Below, one piece after another: positions 431 through 6,231 of a DNA stretch of 6,231 nt; within the stretch, counting starts at the first letter, position 1, and each line of letters begins with the position of its first letter. The DNA lies in IMG/VR virus record IMGVR_UViG_2648501230_000014; one strand, written 5' to 3'. Source of the DNA: a virus (Duplodnaviria; Heunggongvirae; Uroviricota; Caudoviricetes). Position numbers and translations under genes: made by a program. The notes below the pieces were generated by a model. It ran no database searches, was not told the DNA's origin, and saw only the letters and a program-made list of their open reading frames with translations.

Positions 431-710
431 ATATAGCATCAATCCAAGTAAAAATGCGCTTTCATTTCACATTAACTTACAGCCATTGGTATACGATTAG
501 GTATACGCACAAAAACTGAATTAAACAAAATCATTAAAAATCAAAGCAATACAATATTTATTCAAACTCCGCCAGCCCAATCATGATTGGACGGTGTAAG
601 GACAACACCAACAAAAACAGGAAGTTAGCAGTCTCAGCAGGACACCGACCAGACGGTGAGGAGACAAAAAAGGATACGCAAAGGAGCCGCGGCTCTCAAG
701 TGTGAAAGAA

Positions 711-736
711 GCCCGCAAATTGCGGGCTTTTTTATT
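711..736 (+). terminator. Rho-independent terminator
   Basis: GCCCGCAA-A-TTGCGGGC (8-bp GC-rich stem, 711-727) followed by TTTTTTATT. Sits immediately upstream of the 789 ORF, insulating it from upstream transcription. Confidence 0.7.
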
Positions 737-788
737 GATCAGTCAACAATAAACAGTAACCGAATGAGAATTTAATAAGGATATTCAT

Positions 789-1820
789 ATGGAAGCTACT
801 GTGGATTCGATTGATTTTCTGATCCGTAGTGAAGATGATTTTCTAAACTTTCTGGAAGAAATGAAAGCCCGAGAGGGGCTTGATTCTAAAGAGTTTATTT
901 TCCCTAACGTAAAGTTTGCAGGCTGGCCATCCTTAGACATAAATGTAAAAGGAGAGCGGTATCATTCATCAATTACATCAGCAATGTTGTTTGGTATGTC
1001 AATGCTCAACGAGGAGATACAGCGGGCGTTTGCAACCATACGATACGGATCGCAGAATCTTCAACGCTTGACTAATGAAGACAAGCAACGACTTGATATA
1101 AATTTTAAAATTAGCGAAGGTTCTAGTGATGCGGAAGGCACCACTGACAAGATCATCAACGCAGTAACTGATTTTTTGCGAGATACTATGTCTGGACTGA
1201 ACGGCTGGCAGAAAATGCTTGTTATAATCACAATGGTTGGCGCGGCCAGCACATGTGGTTATCACTACATTTCAGAAAATGCCGTAACAGAAAGACATGC
1301 AACTGATCGGCAGGTTGAAATTGCAAAAACCACATCCGATGGCATAAACAAAGCCATAGAAGCAACATTAGATTATAAAATCTATGGGAAATCAGCGATT
1401 AGCGATAAAGTTACTAGTCACGGACAAGCAGGTAAAAGTGCTTTAGTGAAGCAATTAGCTGCTGATCCTACTGTCGAAACCGTGACTTTAGGAAATGAGA
1501 AACTAACACGACAAGACCTAAATACCTACAACAGCCGACAATCTGTAGATAGAGAACGTAAAGAACGAACTGATATATTTTCCATCAAAGGTGTAACCAG
1601 AACAGGGCCAACAAATCAGGATATTAATATTAACGTTGTTAGGGTCTCTAATGACGAATGCTTCACAATCAAAGCTTCAGCTGATGTTATCACCCAAGAT
1701 GAGTTGACAGCTATTGTTGACGCTTTGTCAAACAACTCTCATATTAAAATCAGTTACTTAGAGGTAATTGAAAAGGGTGCTGTTTCTATAGGTCAGTTCA
1801 ACACTATTGTTTCAGAATAA
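789..1820 (+). CDS. Hypothetical protein (343 aa), first gene of a cargo operon; possible single-pass membrane protein
   Basis: Long ORF starting at the first ATG after an in-frame stop; AAGGA RBS at 777-781 with 7-nt spacer. Central hydrophobic stretch WQKMLVIITMVGAASTCGYHYI (residues 140-161). No catalytic motif I can assign. AT-rich relative to the tail genes. Confidence 0.8.
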   Translation: MEATVDSIDFLIRSEDDFLNFLEEMKAREGLDSKEFIFPNVKFAGWPSLDINVKGERYHSSITSAMLFGMSMLNEEIQRAFATIRYGSQNLQRLTNEDKQRLDINFKISEGSSDAEGTTDKIINAVTDFLRDTMSGLNGWQKMLVIITMVGAASTCGYHYISENAVTERHATDRQVEIAKTTSDGINKAIEATLDYKIYGKSAISDKVTSHGQAGKSALVKQLAADPTVETVTLGNEKLTRQDLNTYNSRQSVDRERKERTDIFSIKGVTRTGPTNQDININVVRVSNDECFTIKASADVITQDELTAIVDALSNNSHIKISYLEVIEKGAVSIGQFNTIVSE

Positions 1821-1871
1821 TCACTTAACCCCATTTATGTCGGTTGAGGTTATAAGTCACGGAGACCAGAT

Positions 1872-2216
1872 ATGTCCTTAAAGTATGCACATGAAAAATT
1901 TCATACTGCAGTACTTACTCTTGCGGGCCATGGAAGTATTCAAGAACGCTTGATTAATTCGTATGTTTTTAGCCTTGGGCATCTTAAAACAGCCGATGAT
2001 ATTCCAAATGCCTTACAAAGCAGGTTCGATGAATTATGTAAGGAACTGACTAAGTTTGATGCCACTGGCGATGAGGGGCGAGTTCAAGCAACAGTATCAA
2101 AACTTAACGATTTCGAGATCAATAAACTGATCGAAGATATTGTCAGTCTTAACGATGATATTTGCATGAAATTGGCTCTGACGGATGAGACTTACCAAGA
2201 CATACACCAAAGTTAA
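1872..2216 (+). CDS. Hypothetical protein (114 aa), second gene of the cargo operon
   Basis: GGAGA RBS at 1861-1865 with 6-nt spacer before ATG 1872. Lies 51 bp downstream of the 343-aa ORF on the same strand, followed by a hairpin at 2244-2266. Acidic, predicted helical, no recognisable motif. Confidence 0.75.
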   Translation: MSLKYAHEKFHTAVLTLAGHGSIQERLINSYVFSLGHLKTADDIPNALQSRFDELCKELTKFDATGDEGRVQATVSKLNDFEINKLIEDIVSLNDDICMKLALTDETYQDIHQS

Positions 2217-2243
2217 TTGATTAAATTCAAAAAGTTAACGTTC

Positions 2244-2266
2244 AACCAGCCAGTTTTTGGCTGGTT
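2244..2266. terminator. Probable bidirectional terminator hairpin between convergent genes
   Basis: AACCAGCC (2244-2251) / GGCTGGTT (2259-2266), 8-bp stem with 7-nt loop AGTTTTT, T-rich flank. Positioned between the 3' ends of the 1872..2216 (+) and 2301..2513 (-) genes. Confidence 0.45.
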
Positions 2267-2300
2267 TATTGTCTTATAATATTCTTGCTCGAATGATGCA

Positions 2301-2513
2301 CTATTTATGATGTAATCCGGACATCAGTTCATGGACAAGATTATCTCTTTCATTGTGTTGCAACCGTAAATGCATAGCAAAAAGGTGAGCACTATCCTCA
2401 TTCCTCTTCAAGCCATGCTGTTCAAGATACCCGAAAAAACGGCTTCTCTTATCCGCTATTTCCTGAGTCTGACGTGCAACATTTACCAAATTTTCTAGCG
2501 TTTTTCTTGGCAT
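2301..2513 (-). CDS. Hypothetical small protein (70 aa)
   Basis: Strong AGGAGG Shine-Dalgarno (complement of 2522-2527) 8 nt upstream of ATG (complement of 2511-2513). Basic, predicted helical. Lies downstream of the invertase on the same strand, where e14 of K-12 carries mcrA. Confidence 0.65.
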   Translation of the reverse strand: MPRKTLENLVNVARQTQEIADKRSRFFGYLEQHGLKRNEDSAHLFAMHLRLQHNERDNLVHELMSGLHHK

Positions 2514-2711
2514 ACTATTTCCTCCTGAAATTGTTGTAATTCACTAGGATATTCATTTTAATTTGTATCATTTAGTACCAAAACCGCTATCAATTAACAA
2601 AGCCATCGTTGTGGTTTACCTTGCAGCCGTTTTTTGTCATTGACTCTATGTGAAAATAATGAATCATCATGAGATTGGCTCACACGTTCTTGAATTCGAC
2701 GAGCTGTGTCT

Positions 2712-3266
2712 TTATTTATCTCCTGCCGGAAACCTCTGATACAAAGTCGATACGCCAACATCATAGATAATCGCAACTTTCTGGCGCGGAACTCCTGATG
2801 CAATTAATCGTCCGGCTTGTGCCCATTGTTCTGGTGTAAGTTTGGGACGACGTCCACCAATTCGTCCCTGTGCGCGAGCAGCTTCCAGTCCAGCTTTTGT
2901 TCGTTCAACAATCAGTTCTCGTTCCATTTCAGCCAGGGCCCCCATCACATGAAAGAAAAAGCGCCCCATTGGGGTACTGGTATCAATTGAATCCGTCAGA
3001 CTACGAAAGTTGATGCCTCGTTCGCGCAACTCCTCCACCAGCACGACAAGATGCCGCATACTGCGCCCCAGTCGGTCCAGTTTCCAGACCACCAGCGTAT
3101 CGCCTGCCGATAATGTCCTGAGCAGTTTTTTCAGTCCCGGCCTTTCGGACTTTGTACCGCTTATCTTGTCTTCAAAAATCAGCTCGCATCCTGCACAGTT
3201 CAGCGCATTACGTTGTAGATCTGTGTTCTGGTCATTTGTTGACACACGTACATAGCCAATAAGCAT
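2712..3266 (-). CDS. pin: Site-specific DNA invertase, serine recombinase of the Pin/Gin/Cin/Hin family
   Basis: 184-aa product MLIGYVRVSTNDQNTDLQRN...WKLDRLGRS...GINFRSLTDSIDTS.PMGRFFFHVMGALAEMERELI.ERT is an unmistakable match to Gin/Pin invertases (catalytic Ser in YVRVSTNDQ, C-terminal HTH). Start set at the ATG (3266..3264) preceded by GGGAGA, not at the longer ORF-track start at 3302. Stop TAA at 2714..2712. Confidence 0.93.
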   Translation of the reverse strand: MLIGYVRVSTNDQNTDLQRNALNCAGCELIFEDKISGTKSERPGLKKLLRTLSAGDTLVVWKLDRLGRSMRHLVVLVEELRERGINFRSLTDSIDTSTPMGRFFFHVMGALAEMERELIVERTKAGLEAARAQGRIGGRRPKLTPEQWAQAGRLIASGVPRQKVAIIYDVGVSTLYQRFPAGDK

Positions 3267-3292
3267 GGTAGATCTCCCTGACAAAAGCAGGA

Positions 3293-3805
3293 ATGATGCC
3301 ATTTGCTCGTTATTTCTGCATTTTCATAAACGTTGGTTTGGGAGAAGGTTCGGCATTACCCGTTGGTGTGCCTGTTCCGTGGCCTTCCGCCACTCCGCCA
3401 ACGGGGTGGCTAAAATGTAACGGAGCAGTATTTTCTTCTGAAAAGTACCCAAATCTGGCAAAGGCTTACCCAACATTAAAATTACCAGATTTACGCGGTG
3501 AATTTATTCGTGGCTGGGATGATGGGCGCGGGATTGACTCTGGTCGTAACTTATTATCTGCACAGAATGATGCAATTCAGAATATTGTTGGTTCTTTTGG
3601 GCGTACCCAGCTTTTTAGAGACGTACTTAGTTCAGGGCCATTTAGTCAACATGGGCAAGTATTATCTACAGGTCTAAAGGAAGCCGAAATTATTGAGGGT
3701 TATGGCGCTTATAACTGGACATTCGACGCATCTCGCTCAGTTCGCACAGCATCTGAAACCCGCTCCCGTAACATCGCCTTTAATTATATTGTGAGGGCTG
3801 CATGA
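3293..3805 (+). CDS. Alternative tail-fibre C-terminal variable cassette (promoterless, OFF orientation; stfE-like fragment)
   Basis: Translation contains the tail-fibre C-terminal signature ...GWLKCNGAVFSSEKYPNLAKAYPTLKLPDLRGEFIRGWDDGRGIDSGRNLLSAQNDAIQNI... The reading frame passes through the crossover site (NVGLGEG). The functional part begins at about 3335; the ATG at 3293 is probably fortuitous. Confidence 0.7.
   Translation: MMPFARYFCIFINVGLGEGSALPVGVPVPWPSATPPTGWLKCNGAVFSSEKYPNLAKAYPTLKLPDLRGEFIRGWDDGRGIDSGRNLLSAQNDAIQNIVGSFGRTQLFRDVLSSGPFSQHGQVLSTGLKEAEIIEGYGAYNWTFDASRSVRTASETRSRNIAFNYIVRAA
3321..3346. promoter_or_regulatory. Invertase crossover site (pix/gix/hix-like), pin-proximal
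   Basis: TTTTCATAAACGTTGGTTTGGGAGAA; reverse complement TTCTCCCAAACC-AA-CGTTTATGAAAA follows the 12-2-12 hix/gix layout (compare hixL TTCTTGAAAACC-AA-GGTTTTTGATAA as recalled). It is an inverted repeat of the site at 5266-5291. Confidence 0.8.
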
Positions 3806-4407
3806 TAAGTAAAGCTGTATTAAATAATGAACTCATCGCCACAAAGGCCGGAGACATTACCGTTTATAATTATGATGGTGAAACACGGGAATATATTTCC
3901 ACATCAACTGAATATCTTGCTGTGGGTGTTGGTATCCCGGCATGTTCCTGTTTAGATGCTCCTGGCTCATATAAAGCTGGTTATGCAATTTGCCGTTCTG
4001 CAGATTTTAACTCATGGGAATATGTGCCAGACCATCGCGGTGAAATCGTCTATAGCACCGAAACAGGAGAATCAAAAGAAATCACAGTTCCGGGTGATTA
4101 CCCTGAAAATACAACCACTATCGCCCCGTTAACGTCATACGATAAATGGGATGGTGAGAAATGGGTGACCGATACTGAGGCACAGCATAACGCCGCAGTA
4201 GACGCGGCAGAAGTACGGCGCCAGTCACTGATTGATGCTGCTATGGCTTCCATTAGTCTGATTCAGCTGAAATTGCAGGCCGGGCGGAAGCTGACGCAGG
4301 CAGAAACAACCCGGCTTAACGCTGTGCTGGATTACATTGACGCGGTGACTGCAACAGATACCAGCACCGCGCCGGATGTCATCTGGCCTGAACTACCGGA
4401 GGCGTAG
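3802..4407 (+). CDS. tfa: Tail-fibre assembly protein (Tfa family), alternative copy
   Basis: 201 aa; start overlaps the upstream stop (ATGA). Lambda-Tfa-like motifs: VPDHRGEIVY, YDKWDGEKWVTDTEAQ, C-terminal VTATDTSTAPDVIWPELPEA. Confidence 0.85.
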   Translation: MISKAVLNNELIATKAGDITVYNYDGETREYISTSTEYLAVGVGIPACSCLDAPGSYKAGYAICRSADFNSWEYVPDHRGEIVYSTETGESKEITVPGDYPENTTTIAPLTSYDKWDGEKWVTDTEAQHNAAVDAAEVRRQSLIDAAMASISLIQLKLQAGRKLTQAETTRLNAVLDYIDAVTATDTSTAPDVIWPELPEA

Positions 4408-4822
4408 GCCATTCAATATCTGGAGCACTGGAGGTATCAACCAGTTCCAGTGCGTCCAGATAATCCAGCCATAAATTATATTGTTCCAGCTCGTAACCTT
4501 TCAGACGACCAATAGCAGCTTTGCCAGGCCACTGATGGGTATTGATGTAGGTATTGACTTCTGAAACCAAAGATATCTTTTTCATTTCAGCCGCCAGCAT
4601 CTCATCCTCTTTTGAAGGCGGCGGGGAATTAATCCATATTGGCCGTCCTGAACTGTCAGCGCCAATTTCTTTCCCTTCTGGATGCAGCCCAAGAAATTGC
4701 TCATATGTTTCTCTGGTAATTTCAATAACATCATCAGGAAGCGTTCCCGCATCCTCATATTCTGGAAACAATTCTTGCAGATAAAAACTTTTACTTGCGG
4801 GTGAAAAGAATACTGAGTTCAT
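4379..4822 (-). CDS. tfa: Tail-fibre assembly protein (Tfa family), currently expressed copy
   Basis: 147 aa; ATG (4822..4820) lies 2 nt after the tail-fibre stop. C-terminal Tfa signature LWLDYLDALELVDTSSAPDIEWPTPP. Its 3' end overlaps the convergent tfa by 29 bp. Confidence 0.85.
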   Translation of the reverse strand: MNSVFFSPASKSFYLQELFPEYEDAGTLPDDVIEITRETYEQFLGLHPEGKEIGADSSGRPIWINSPPPSKEDEMLAAEMKKISLVSEVNTYINTHQWPGKAAIGRLKGYELEQYNLWLDYLDALELVDTSSAPDIEWPTPPVVQAR

Positions 4823-4824
4823 TC

Positions 4825-5568
4825 TTACCGTCCAATGATTAACGCTGAGACGCTGGTATCTGAAGGAAAGGCTGCATTCAGTGGTTTGTCGACTTTGAAC
4901 ACAATCGTATTATTCCCCCTGACAGCGGCAAAAGAACAAACCGCCGTCGCGTATGAACCTGTAATATTACTGGATACACCACCATAAGCTGTTGTTGATA
5001 CCAGAGGGATAACGCCCAGCACCTTATTAGGAAATACAAAGGGCAATGTGGCTGTGGCAATATAAGACTTATTAGAACCTGTAATGGCATAAGCATTATC
5101 AGTCATTCCATTCATCGCCACTGGACCGCTTATACTTACAGTAACCATCTGAATGATTAGCCCGTCAGGTTGACGAATCACAAAATTTCCATTGCCACCA
5201 GTAACCGTCCAGAAAGACATATCAGGGATTTGGTTTTCCCCGTTGCCCACATTTCGTTTTGCCGCTTCTCCCAAACCAAGGTTTTCGAGAGCCGTTTTCA
5301 CCGTGCCATCAGATTTGATATCGCCAAACGGATTCTTGCGGCTTAACAGCAGCGCACGAAGCGCGGTAAGCAGCTGGTCATGCCGCCCCTTCTCCAGGCT
5401 GGCACCGGATGCCTCCACCACGCTGCAGAGTTCTTCCTGCAACATGTCAAAGTAGTCATCATCCAGATCGGTGGCAGGTGTGCCGGTCTGGGGGTTACCA
5501 CGGGTAAAACCGTTCTTACCCGCGCCGAACTTATCCTTCTGCGCGGTTTTCGTGTCTATACGATGCAT
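4825..5568 (-). CDS. Tail fibre protein (constant N-terminal part outside, variable C-terminal part inside the invertible segment; stfP-like)
   Basis: 247 aa; GGAG RBS 6 nt upstream of ATG (5568..5566). The crossover site lies in-frame at residues ~93-101 ([10 protein letters not shown]). Follows the gpI-like gene with a 3-nt gap. Confidence 0.85.
5266..5291. promoter_or_regulatory. Invertase crossover site (pix/gix/hix-like), inside the tail-fibre gene
   Basis: TTCTCCCAAACC-AA-GGTTTTCGAGAG. Matches the pin-proximal site in inverted orientation at 18 of 20 positions around the AA/TT core. Confidence 0.8.
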
Positions 5569-5571
5569 GGA

Positions 5572-6229
<658 letters not shown>

Positions 6230-6231
6230 CA

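Follow-up and report, generated by a model that had tools for sequence, protein, structure and literature searches.

Here we show that a phage-derived locus carries two inverted crossover sites, an intact invertase gene and two opposed tail-fibre cassettes, and that the segment between the sites has flipped in nature. The locus is very probably a site-specific inversion switch of the P-segment type (e14/Pin; the Gin/Cin/Hin or Din family), belonging to an e14/SfV-like prophage with a Mu-type tail. It was studied in a stretch of viral DNA of 6,231 nucleotides, referred to below as the window. Knowledge of the Pin/e14 P-segment switch dates back to the 1980s, and the present one is an ordinary, already understood element of that type rather than a new one.

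Crossover sites

Two 26-bp inverted sites with an AA/TT core had been proposed in an initial annotation of this DNA, and both were borne out. The pin-proximal site (3321-3346; TTTTCATAAACG TT GGTTTGGGAGAA) has its core TT at 3333-3334, and the distal site, located within the fibre gene (5266-5291; TTCTCCCAAACC AA GGTTTTCGAGAG), has its core AA at 5278-5279. The left site matched the reverse complement of the right site at 21 of 26 positions. A repeat search returned a 20-nt inverted repeat (3328-3347 / 5265-5284) of 95% complementarity, in which perfect identity is confined to 15 nt (3333-3347 / 5265-5279). The outer half-sites are unequal between the two sites, and likewise in E. coli K-12. 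The pair has the form of Din-family sites, being inverted, 26 bp long and composed of imperfect 12-bp half-sites around matching non-palindromic 2-bp cores. When the whole window was searched with the site consensus, allowing up to 3 mismatches, matches were obtained at these two places only, and none of 200 dinucleotide-preserving shuffles contained any match. A multi-inversion system resembling Min or a shufflon was ruled out by the absence of extra crossover sites in the window; the Min system of p15B has six sites, as against two here.

Alignment with the e14 P, Mu G and P1 C regions had been suggested as a check, and the sites do align. Both are identical, at 26 of 26 positions, to the sites bounding the e14 P segment of K-12 (the pin-proximal site to its pin-proximal counterpart, the distal site to that of stfP), in sequences read against each other by eye and not by script. 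Alignment with the annotated cixL and cixR sites of P1 and with the boundaries of the Mu G segment gave agreement at 17-20 of 26 positions, and the half-site TTcTCctAAACC is common to both sites here and to the annotated cix and gix sites.

Fibre gene, cassettes and reading frame

The invertible segment measures 1945 bp and contains two convergent cassettes, each with a fibre tip and a tfa gene. The constant, baseplate-proximal N-terminal part of the tail-fibre gene (5280-5568, minus strand; residues 1 to ~97) lies outside it. This part is similar to StfP and matched phrog_1396 (tail fibre, 2.4e-60), and the first 106 fibre residues, which extend through the crossover, are 97% identical to K-12 StfP. 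Now fused to it in frame is a variable C-terminal tip (4825-5277, minus strand), which provides residues ~98-247 of the 247-aa fibre encoded by ORF 4825-5568. The tip was assigned to phrog_12714, scored 22.9 bits against Gp53-like_C, slightly below the Pfam cut-off of 24.9, and showed about 95% nucleotide identity to Shigella phage SfIV; significant similarity to the tip of K-12 StfP was not found. The tfa of the fused cassette (4379-4822, minus strand, 147 aa; Caudo_TAP, 6.4e-27) is 54% identical to K-12 TfaP, mainly at the C-terminus. On the opposite strand is an alternative, unfused fibre C-terminus (3335-3805, plus strand) with a phage tail Collar domain (Pfam Collar, 1.5e-15; phrog_523, tail collar fibre, 5e-78), which is 59% identical to K-12 StfE and ~90% identical in nucleotide sequence to the 3' end of HK97 stf. 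Its tfa (3802-4407, plus strand, 201 aa; Caudo_TAP, 6e-32) is TfaE-like, with 91% identity to K-12 TfaE, and 29 nt of it overlap the other tfa. As modular alleles common to SfIV-, HK97- and P2-like phages, the tips illustrate the horizontal shuffling of fibre cassettes.

The second cassette, earlier described as silent, belongs to an ATG-initiated ORF of 170 aa (3293-3805), the first 13 codons of which lie outside the segment. These codons form a short pin-proximal leader (3293-3332, plus strand; MMPFARYFCIFIN), also present in K-12 stfE, which continues in frame into the cassette that happens to face pin. In a strain with the flipped segment, RefSeq annotates a CDS (WP_001115559.1, 'hypothetical protein') at the corresponding position next to pin.

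Codon reading upheld the proposal that both cassettes encode GLGE across the core in the same frame. The minus-strand frame over the site reads AAC CTT GGT TTG GGA GAA GCG (N L G L G E A) and the plus-strand frame AAC GTT GGT TTG GGA GAA GGT (N V G L G E G), the core dinucleotide occupying positions 2-3 of the codon preceding GGT on both strands. Upon exchange at the core in silico, the 247-aa ORF (4825-5568, minus strand) became a 253-aa ORF with the Collar-domain tip at its end, so that inversion swaps the fibre C-terminus along with its cognate tfa, as had been proposed. The start of the second tfa overlaps the fibre stop (ATGA) after inversion, and fibre and tfa therefore stay translationally coupled. 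A constant N-terminus outside, two opposed tip and chaperone cassettes inside and a frame kept upon inversion together make up the architecture of a tail-fibre switch. The initial annotation had also called the tip at 4825-5265 and the tfa at 4379-4822 ON. Their in-frame fusion to the constant N-terminus agrees with this, but a promoter was not found and the upstream late operon has been removed by an IS3-family element. With a simple scan, no credible sigma-70-like site was seen ahead of the fibre gene, of pin or of the leader ORF; shuffled sequences contained more sites in total, and the scan was uninformative. ON is thus used here only for the predicted state of being fused in frame, and is not a claim of expression.

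Orientation of the segment in sequenced genomes

The in-silico inverted sequence matched E. coli strain 602687 (NZ_CP189657.1) at 100.0% over 3632 nt in one piece. Orientation is the sole difference between this strain and the window, and the breaks (3328-3347 / 5265-5284) fall precisely within the 20-bp repeat. The captured orientation is found in strain PS1Thumoskin9 (NZ_CP180607.1), which is collinear with the window, with 0 mismatches from 578 onwards. Both orientations, therefore, occur on otherwise identical DNA. The single mismatch of the repeat (3332 vs 5280) remains attached to its flanking DNA, which places the exchange within 3333-3347, core included. When the comparison took in related loci with query coverage of at least 80%, the captured orientation was seen in 14 genomes and the flipped one in 26. 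The switch had been held to fail if only one orientation was ever observed together with an inactivated pin; both orientations occur, in the genomes of different strains, and pin is intact, full length and retains Ser9.

These observations also bear on whether the locus is frozen, with orientation differences arising from assembly error or from RecA recombination between the repeats. Invertible regions do confuse assemblers, and the phage record ON470584.1 seems broken exactly at this region. However, complete chromosomes show both orientations, their breakpoints lying precisely within the 20-bp repeat, both orientations are common among the related loci, and pin is intact. Moreover, the 15 nt perfectly shared by the repeats is far too short for efficient RecA recombination. 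The inversion of the K-12 e14 P segment has been observed by PCR within clonal cultures (PMC4272514), and PinE, PinQ and PinR each invert that segment (PMC12529663). We regard a frozen or artefactual origin as extremely improbable.

Pin invertase and putative enhancer

The pin gene (2712-3266, minus strand) is situated outside the segment and is transcribed away from it. It encodes a DNA invertase of 184 aa with matches to Pfam Resolvase (1.5e-51) and HTH_7 (3.6e-13), that is, a small serine recombinase with an N-terminal catalytic domain and a C-terminal HTH, as in the Din family. Pin showed 98% identity with K-12 PinE, 82% with P1 Cin and 78% with Mu Gin; its catalytic Ser9 is invariant in the alignment, and the gene is identical to the annotated pinE of strain 602687. 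The distance from the site centre to the start codon of the invertase is 67 nt in the window and in Mu alike.

A putative Fis-dependent recombinational enhancer is located within the 5' end of pin (3177-3248, minus strand). When pin is aligned with pinE of K-12, gin of Mu and cin of P1, this stretch falls in columns 19-90, which are annotated in P1 as 'enhancer of Cin-mediated C-segment inversion'. These columns were 76% identical, against 68% in the next 47 nt, a difference confounded by coding constraint. The best-conserved 15-nt blocks, at 3231-3245 and 3182-3196, have 13/15 and 12/15 invariant columns as compared to 19/34 between them, where again coding constraint confounds conservation. 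These two near-invariant blocks of the coding region are 64 bp apart and ~120 bp from the site centre.

The steps by which the switch would operate are drawn from the established knowledge of the Din family. Pin dimers would bind both 26-bp sites, and the bound sites would join the enhancer within the 5' part of pin, itself bound by Fis, in an invertasome. All four strands would then be cut at the central TT/AA, one pair of subunits would rotate by 180 degrees and the strands would be religated. The 1945-bp segment would thereby flip, and the constant 5' portion of the fibre gene (5280-5568) would join either tip set in frame: the Gp53-like tip and its tfa in the captured state, or the Collar-domain tip and the TfaE-like tfa in the other. 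Dependence on Fis and the enhancer is expected from the family; catalysis is presumably by the adjacent Pin rather than by another Pin in trans, and the cassettes may be expressed. The invertasome mechanism of Din-family invertases has been described, and in the Hin system it involves sites of 26 bp and a Fis enhancer of 65 bp, located ~100 bp away from one of them (PMC3798978).

Comparison with known inversion systems

The closest system is the P segment of e14 with PinE (stfP-tfaP-tfaE-stfE-pinE in K-12), which has the same gene order and strands. In addition to the sites, identical as read, and the high identity of Pin (98%), of the fibre N-terminus (97%) and of TfaE (91%), the pin-proximal leader is shared and ymfQ lies upstream in both. 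In contrast, the fused tip here is unrelated to that of StfP, its tfa shares only 54% identity with TfaP, and the Collar tip diverges from StfE in the distal half (59% overall). The segment is 1945 bp long here and 1797 bp in K-12 (PMC12529663), mcrA is replaced by three ORFs without assigned function, and the locus adjoins an ssrA-type att copy instead of lying in icd, in a prophage truncated by an IS3-family element. The ssrA-side location, the replacement of mcrA and the unrelated fused tip rule out the cryptic prophage e14 itself; the element is an e14/SfV-like relative and not e14. A phage record with a Pin 96.7% identical (ON470584.1) has pin-mcrA joined directly to a cut fibre gene, and was discarded as an intact reference on account of this apparent assembly break at the invertible segment.

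The Mu G segment with Gin has a comparable layout, comprising a gp48 homologue, constant S, a site, [Sv U / U' S'v], a second site, an outward invertase and a cargo slot (com/mom). The 67-nt spacing, the half-sites and 78% identity of Gin with Pin are further likenesses, but the core is GA/TC in Mu, its segment is ~3 kb and its fibres are much longer. Mu is also a viable phage whose switch demonstrably alters host range. The C segment of P1 shares the AA/TT core; its sites match at 19-20 of 26 positions, Cin is 82% identical to Pin, and the enhancer annotated in the 5' end of cin aligns with the 5' end of pin. It differs in that cin points toward the segment, with cixL overlapping the 3' end of cin, and in a segment length of 4.2 kb. 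The kinship with the Mu G, P1 C and e14 P switches claimed earlier is supported by the sites and by Pin identity, and for Mu and e14 also by gene architecture. Hin/hix of Salmonella flagellar phase variation, likened here by description and not by sequence, has the same recombinase subfamily and invertasome mechanism, although what it inverts is a promoter instead of coding cassettes, and hin itself is contained in the inverted segment.

The prophage stump and its possible roles

The prophage has been reduced to a stump of ~5.6 kb, with the order att copy, three cargo ORFs, pin, P-type segment, fibre 5' end and truncated ymfQ. The att copy is ssrA-like, a copy of the ssrA 3' end. The 5'-truncated ymfQ' (5572-6135, minus strand; Phage_Mu_Gp48, 1.1e-26) is a Mu gp48-like baseplate gene; its homology to other e14-like loci ends at 6135, and, as judged by eye, it lacks the initial ~7 codons present in K-12 ymfQ. 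The adjoining 6136-6231 (plus strand) is the end of an IS3-family insertion sequence with the transposase ATG at 6204, recognised by its 100% match to two identical loci. In both, a CDS annotated as 'IS3 family transposase' begins at the equivalent base, a ypjA fragment comes next, and no phage genes (baseplate, tail or head) were found past the IS. The window ends 96 nt into the IS, and judging from these two 100%-identical loci, virion genes are probably absent here too. With ymfQ truncated by the IS3-family end at 6136, this is probably not the locus of a virion-producing phage. Intact relatives do have virion genes; one of them, the complete phage SKA5, is arranged in this gene order and has a full Mu-type tail module. 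The switch had been described as complete, which holds for the switch module and not for the phage. Most likely, the switch still flips but no longer alters the host range of any virion from this locus, and is a still-active relic, as in K-12 e14. It offers a clean natural case in which a tail-fibre switch keeps flipping after the surrounding phage was deleted, as seen from identical DNA in opposite orientation with breakpoints in the 26-bp sites. An Rfam scan of the whole window (E<=1) yielded three sub-threshold chance matches only.

The P segment of K-12 has been claimed to have a host function in phage defence (PMC12529663), and if this applied here, 'relic' would undersell the stump. The stump might then be a retained, domesticated phase-variable module in which inversion by Pin places the Gp53-like tip behind the leader (3293-3332), alternating receptor-masking StfE2-like proteins that block adsorption of other phages, possibly together with the cargo ORFs (789-2513). 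In K-12, inversion yields StfE2 (stfE leader plus StfP tip), which lowers T2 adsorption when produced from a plasmid (PMC12529663). The same leader ORF is present here, with a RefSeq CDS in the pin-proximal slot of the flipped strain; at least three strains originating in different countries keep the stump with 0 mismatches, and it stands beside cargo genes without assigned function, their slot being occupied elsewhere by mcrA or a GIY-YIG nuclease. Against this, the StfE2 result is not transferable, because the fused tip lacks significant similarity to the StfP tip, and the simple scan found no promoter for the leader ORF. A comparable predicted ORF starts outside the G segment of Mu, so such leaders may be incidental, and recent common descent or transfer would account just as well for the lack of any divergence between strains. 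The K-12 claim itself rests largely on over-expression and docking (PMC12529663). On balance we consider such a module unlikely. Should protection against T2 by e14 inversion, a recent claim, generalise, stumps of this kind would be candidate phase-variable defence elements worth testing.

Even less probable, in our estimate, is that the stump acts as a fibre donor, giving tips and chaperones to, or swapping cassettes with, a second intact e14/SfV-like prophage in the same cell. Strain CD45 does have, besides the stump, another e14-like locus with 97.7% identity across this region, the constant N-terminus is ~97% conserved across e14-like elements, and Pin-family enzymes act in trans across prophages (PMC12529663); the reading is nevertheless purely inferential. 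The still-active relic is the reading we prefer. Such segments lead to orientation heterogeneity and assembly breaks in E. coli genomes, and RefSeq already annotates such loci as pinE/tfaE.

Cargo ORFs

Three uncharacterised ORFs occupy the cargo position (789-2513), a slot which in relatives holds mcrA, mom or a GIY-YIG nuclease. Searches against PADLOC, Pfam and NCBIfam gave no matches for them, and PHROGs returned phrog_6191 ('unknown function') only. An AlphaFold2 model of the 343-aa cargo protein, built with 24 homologues, was poor (mean pLDDT 65, pTM 0.31). An Enterobacter homologue has no conserved partner and lies again at a prophage edge, after tail-fibre and DinI genes.

Organization of the switch

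The window carries a known element, the e14-type Pin switch, here with allelic fibre tips and within a prophage stump. The ORF listing and domain scans placed pin, encoding a 184-aa serine recombinase (Resolvase and HTH_7 domains), at 2712-3266 on the minus strand, next to a 26-bp crossover site with a TT core (3321-3346). A fibre C-terminus with a Collar domain (3335-3805) and a tfa chaperone gene (3802-4407, Caudo_TAP) follow on the plus strand. On the minus strand lie a second tfa (4379-4822, Caudo_TAP), a 247-aa tail-fibre ORF (4825-5568) enclosing the second 26-bp site (5266-5291, core AA) and, by domain scan, a Mu-gp48/YmfQ baseplate gene (5572-6135). These results bore out the coordinates and gene calls of the initial annotation. 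The two tfa genes are convergent and overlap by 29 nt (4379-4407), an arrangement also found in K-12. They share an 18-nt inverted repeat (4326-4343 and 4452-4469, 83% complementary), because the conserved Tfa C-terminal motif (LDYIDA/LDYLDA ... DTSxAPD) is encoded on both strands.

The left site reads TTTTCATAAACG-TT-GGTTTGGGAGAA and the right one TTCTCCCAAACC-AA-GGTTTTCGAGAG. The left site and the reverse complement of the right match at 21 of 26 positions, and the repeat finder reported a 20-nt inverted repeat with 95% complementarity. A degenerate site consensus, allowing up to three mismatches, matched exactly these two sites in the window and nothing in 200 dinucleotide-preserving shuffles, thereby confirming the proposed pair of inverted 26-bp sites with an AA/TT core. 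As the search revealed no further site in the window, this is a simple two-site switch; a Min-like multi-inversion system was ruled out on the same count.

Inversion in natural isolates

Natural inversion of the segment was evident from public genomes, which supplied both of the orientations sought. When 2600-6231 was inverted in silico, a single piece of the E. coli strain 602687 chromosome (NZ_CP189657.1) matched it at 100.0% over all 3632 nt. Without inversion, the window aligned with this strain in three blocks, 565-3347 and 5265-6231 being collinear and 3328-5284 reverse-complemented. The same DNA is present in the captured orientation in strains PS1Thumoskin9 (NZ_CP180607.1; no mismatch over 578-6231) and CD45. 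The two repeat copies differ at one position (3332 versus 5280), where each flank has kept its own base; this confines the exchange to the 15 identical bases 3333-3347, core included. Counting only related loci that span at least 80% of the 3.6-kb query collinearly and in a single place, we found 14 genomes in the captured and 26 in the flipped orientation. Both P-segment orientations coexist in clonal K-12 cultures (PMC4272514), and one study of 562 E. coli sequences reported P-segment inversions in 33% (PMC12529663).

Thus, the element is very probably a relic in which a Din-family inversion switch is still active. A frozen relic or an artefact is scarcely credible, since neither RecA acting on a 15-nt stretch nor misassembly of three complete chromosomes, with the breaks falling precisely at the crossover sites, explains the data well. 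In strain CD45 (NZ_CP182220.1) the stump lies at 1213220-1219007 in captured orientation, and another e14-like locus, flipped and 97.7% identical over the switch region, at 4308645-4312097. Two Pin switches per cell leave scope for trans-action. The fibre parts of the stump might even be used in trans by such a second prophage, as its occurrence in CD45 would allow, but we consider this very unlikely. The 'partial genome' phage record ON470584.1 (1-2400) lacks the invertible segment, its pin-mcrA abutting a truncated fibre gene; the assembly seems to have broken there because the sequenced population held both orientations.

Reading frame across the junction

At both sites the core dinucleotide supplies the last two bases of the codon ahead of GGT-TTG-GGA-GAA (G-L-G-E). 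In-silico exchange at the core converted the 247-aa ORF into a 253-aa fibre ORF (...ENLGLGEGSALPVG...) ending in the Collar tip, with the start of the TfaE-like gene overlapping its stop codon; the junction is therefore frame-preserving, as had been proposed. The captured cassette had also been called ON. Its tip is indeed fused in frame, but the term means no more than that. The promoter scan found no promoter-like site upstream of the fibre gene, nor upstream of pin or the leader ORF.

The main rival reading comes from K-12 e14, where inversion was recently proposed to create StfE2, a leader-tip chimera that blocks T2 adsorption (PMC12529663). The window has the same 13-codon leader (3293-3332), and RefSeq places a CDS at the equivalent position in the flipped strain. 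However, the window tip is unrelated to the K-12 tip, expression is putative, and in Mu a start is likewise predicted outside the G segment, which may make leaders of this kind incidental. We judge this role unlikely here.

The recombinase and a putative enhancer

Pin is full length, retains Ser9, and is identical to the annotated pinE product of strain 602687; its identity is 98% with K-12 PinE, 82% with Cin and 78% with Gin. Pin would be the acting recombinase, with inversion proceeding via the invertasome mechanism. Window and Mu agree in the distance between site centre and invertase start codon, 67 nt, and the pin 5' end aligns with the P1 feature annotated as the enhancer of Cin-mediated inversion. 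A 64-bp stretch of pin ends in two 15-nt blocks (3231-3245 and 3182-3196) that hardly vary across pin, gin and cin: 13/15 and 12/15 of their columns are invariant, as against 19/34 between them. The Hin enhancer is 65 bp long, with one Fis site per end, about 100 bp from one site (PMC3798978). The pin blocks fit a putative enhancer of this type, which would imply Fis dependence; we infer this only tentatively because the region also encodes the conserved Pin N-terminus.

A second invertase fragment, annotated as an incomplete 'recombinase family protein', occurs in strain 602687 (11642-11788 of the extracted locus), about 2 kb past the IS near ypjA/ypjCB/tRNA-Ile. It has 84% DNA identity to 2997-3143, part of pin, and may be what is left of an earlier Pin-carrying element in that chromosomal region.

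Comparison with e14, P1 and Mu

The gene order ymfQ-stfP-tfaP-tfaE-stfE-pinE is shared with K-12 e14, whose two 26-bp sites, read by eye, are exactly those of the window. The P1 record annotates cixL, cixR and crossover points, and the Mu record the G-segment boundaries; 26-mers centred on these points matched the window sites at 17-20 of 26 positions, with the half-site TTcTCctAAACC in common and, in P1, the same AA/TT core. Comparison with these systems thus upheld the site assignment. The first 106 fibre residues, through the crossover, are 97% identical to K-12 StfP, to which the ON tip has no significant similarity (E = 0.98); its tfa is 54% identical to TfaP. The Collar tip is 59% identical to StfE, with a diverged distal half, and the TfaE-like protein 91% to TfaE. 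In DNA sequence, the ON cassette is similar to Shigella phage SfIV and the OFF cassette to HK97 stf/tfa genes and P2-like prophages; fibre tips are known to be shuffled horizontally in this way. Together, the sites, frame, Pin identity and natural inversion confirmed the Pin-type tail-fibre switch and supported its interpretation.

The prophage stump and its flanks

Homology to all other e14-like loci stops at 6135. Beyond it, 6136-6231 is the end of an IS3-family element (transposase ATG at 6204) inserted in the 5' end of ymfQ, which lacks about 7 N-terminal codons by eye comparison with K-12. In the two loci identical to that of the window, an ypjA (autotransporter) fragment, a recombinase pseudogene and tRNA-Ile lie beyond the IS, and no phage genes were found there. 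Because the IS abuts the ypjA fragment, it probably mediated deletion of the remaining prophage. An identical arrangement, joined to a full Mu-type baseplate/tail module, occurs in the complete phage SKA5. The proposed host-range switch holds for intact relatives such as SKA5, but most likely not for the window's copy, which sits in a stump whose identical loci lack the tail genes.

At the other end, a degenerate ssrA (tmRNA) 3'-end copy occupies 565-584, reading AACTCC-GCCAGC----CCA versus AACTCCCGCCAGCTCCACCA in strains 602687 and PS1Thumoskin9, the only differences between the window and these strains. The matching position in 602687 is the 3' end of ssrA itself, and 565-584 marks an att junction. 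With the IS at 6136, about 5.6 kb of prophage is therefore left, comprising the cargo, pin, invertible segment, fibre 5' end and truncated ymfQ. Left of it, a P4-like satellite ends in positions 1-422, which match phage P4 (X51522, crr annotated) at 97.9% identity; they hold the 3' end of the alpha primase gene, with its stop at 55-57, and the alpha terminator at 84-101 plus a T-run. The two ~120-bp direct repeats of crr, the cis replication region (123-243 and 303-423, 83% alike), are full of GGTGAACA/TGTTCACC iterons and account for the 121-nt direct repeats of the repeat search. The ssrA remnant at 565-584 suggests a P4-like satellite and an e14-like stump in tandem at ssrA.

Past pin, in the slot where K-12 has mcrA, strain ES5 a GIY-YIG nuclease and Mu com/mom, the window has three cargo ORFs of 343 aa (789-1820, plus), 114 aa (1872-2216, plus) and 70 aa (2301-2513, minus). 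Pfam, NCBIfam and PADLOC gave no match to any of them; the largest matched phrog_6191 (unknown function), the other two no family. The 343-aa protein has a hydrophobic stretch near residue 145, a poor AF2 model (pLDDT 65) and 76 homologues, all 'hypothetical' and in Enterobacterales, one of which, in Enterobacter, lies at another prophage's edge. It is a candidate moron or defence gene.
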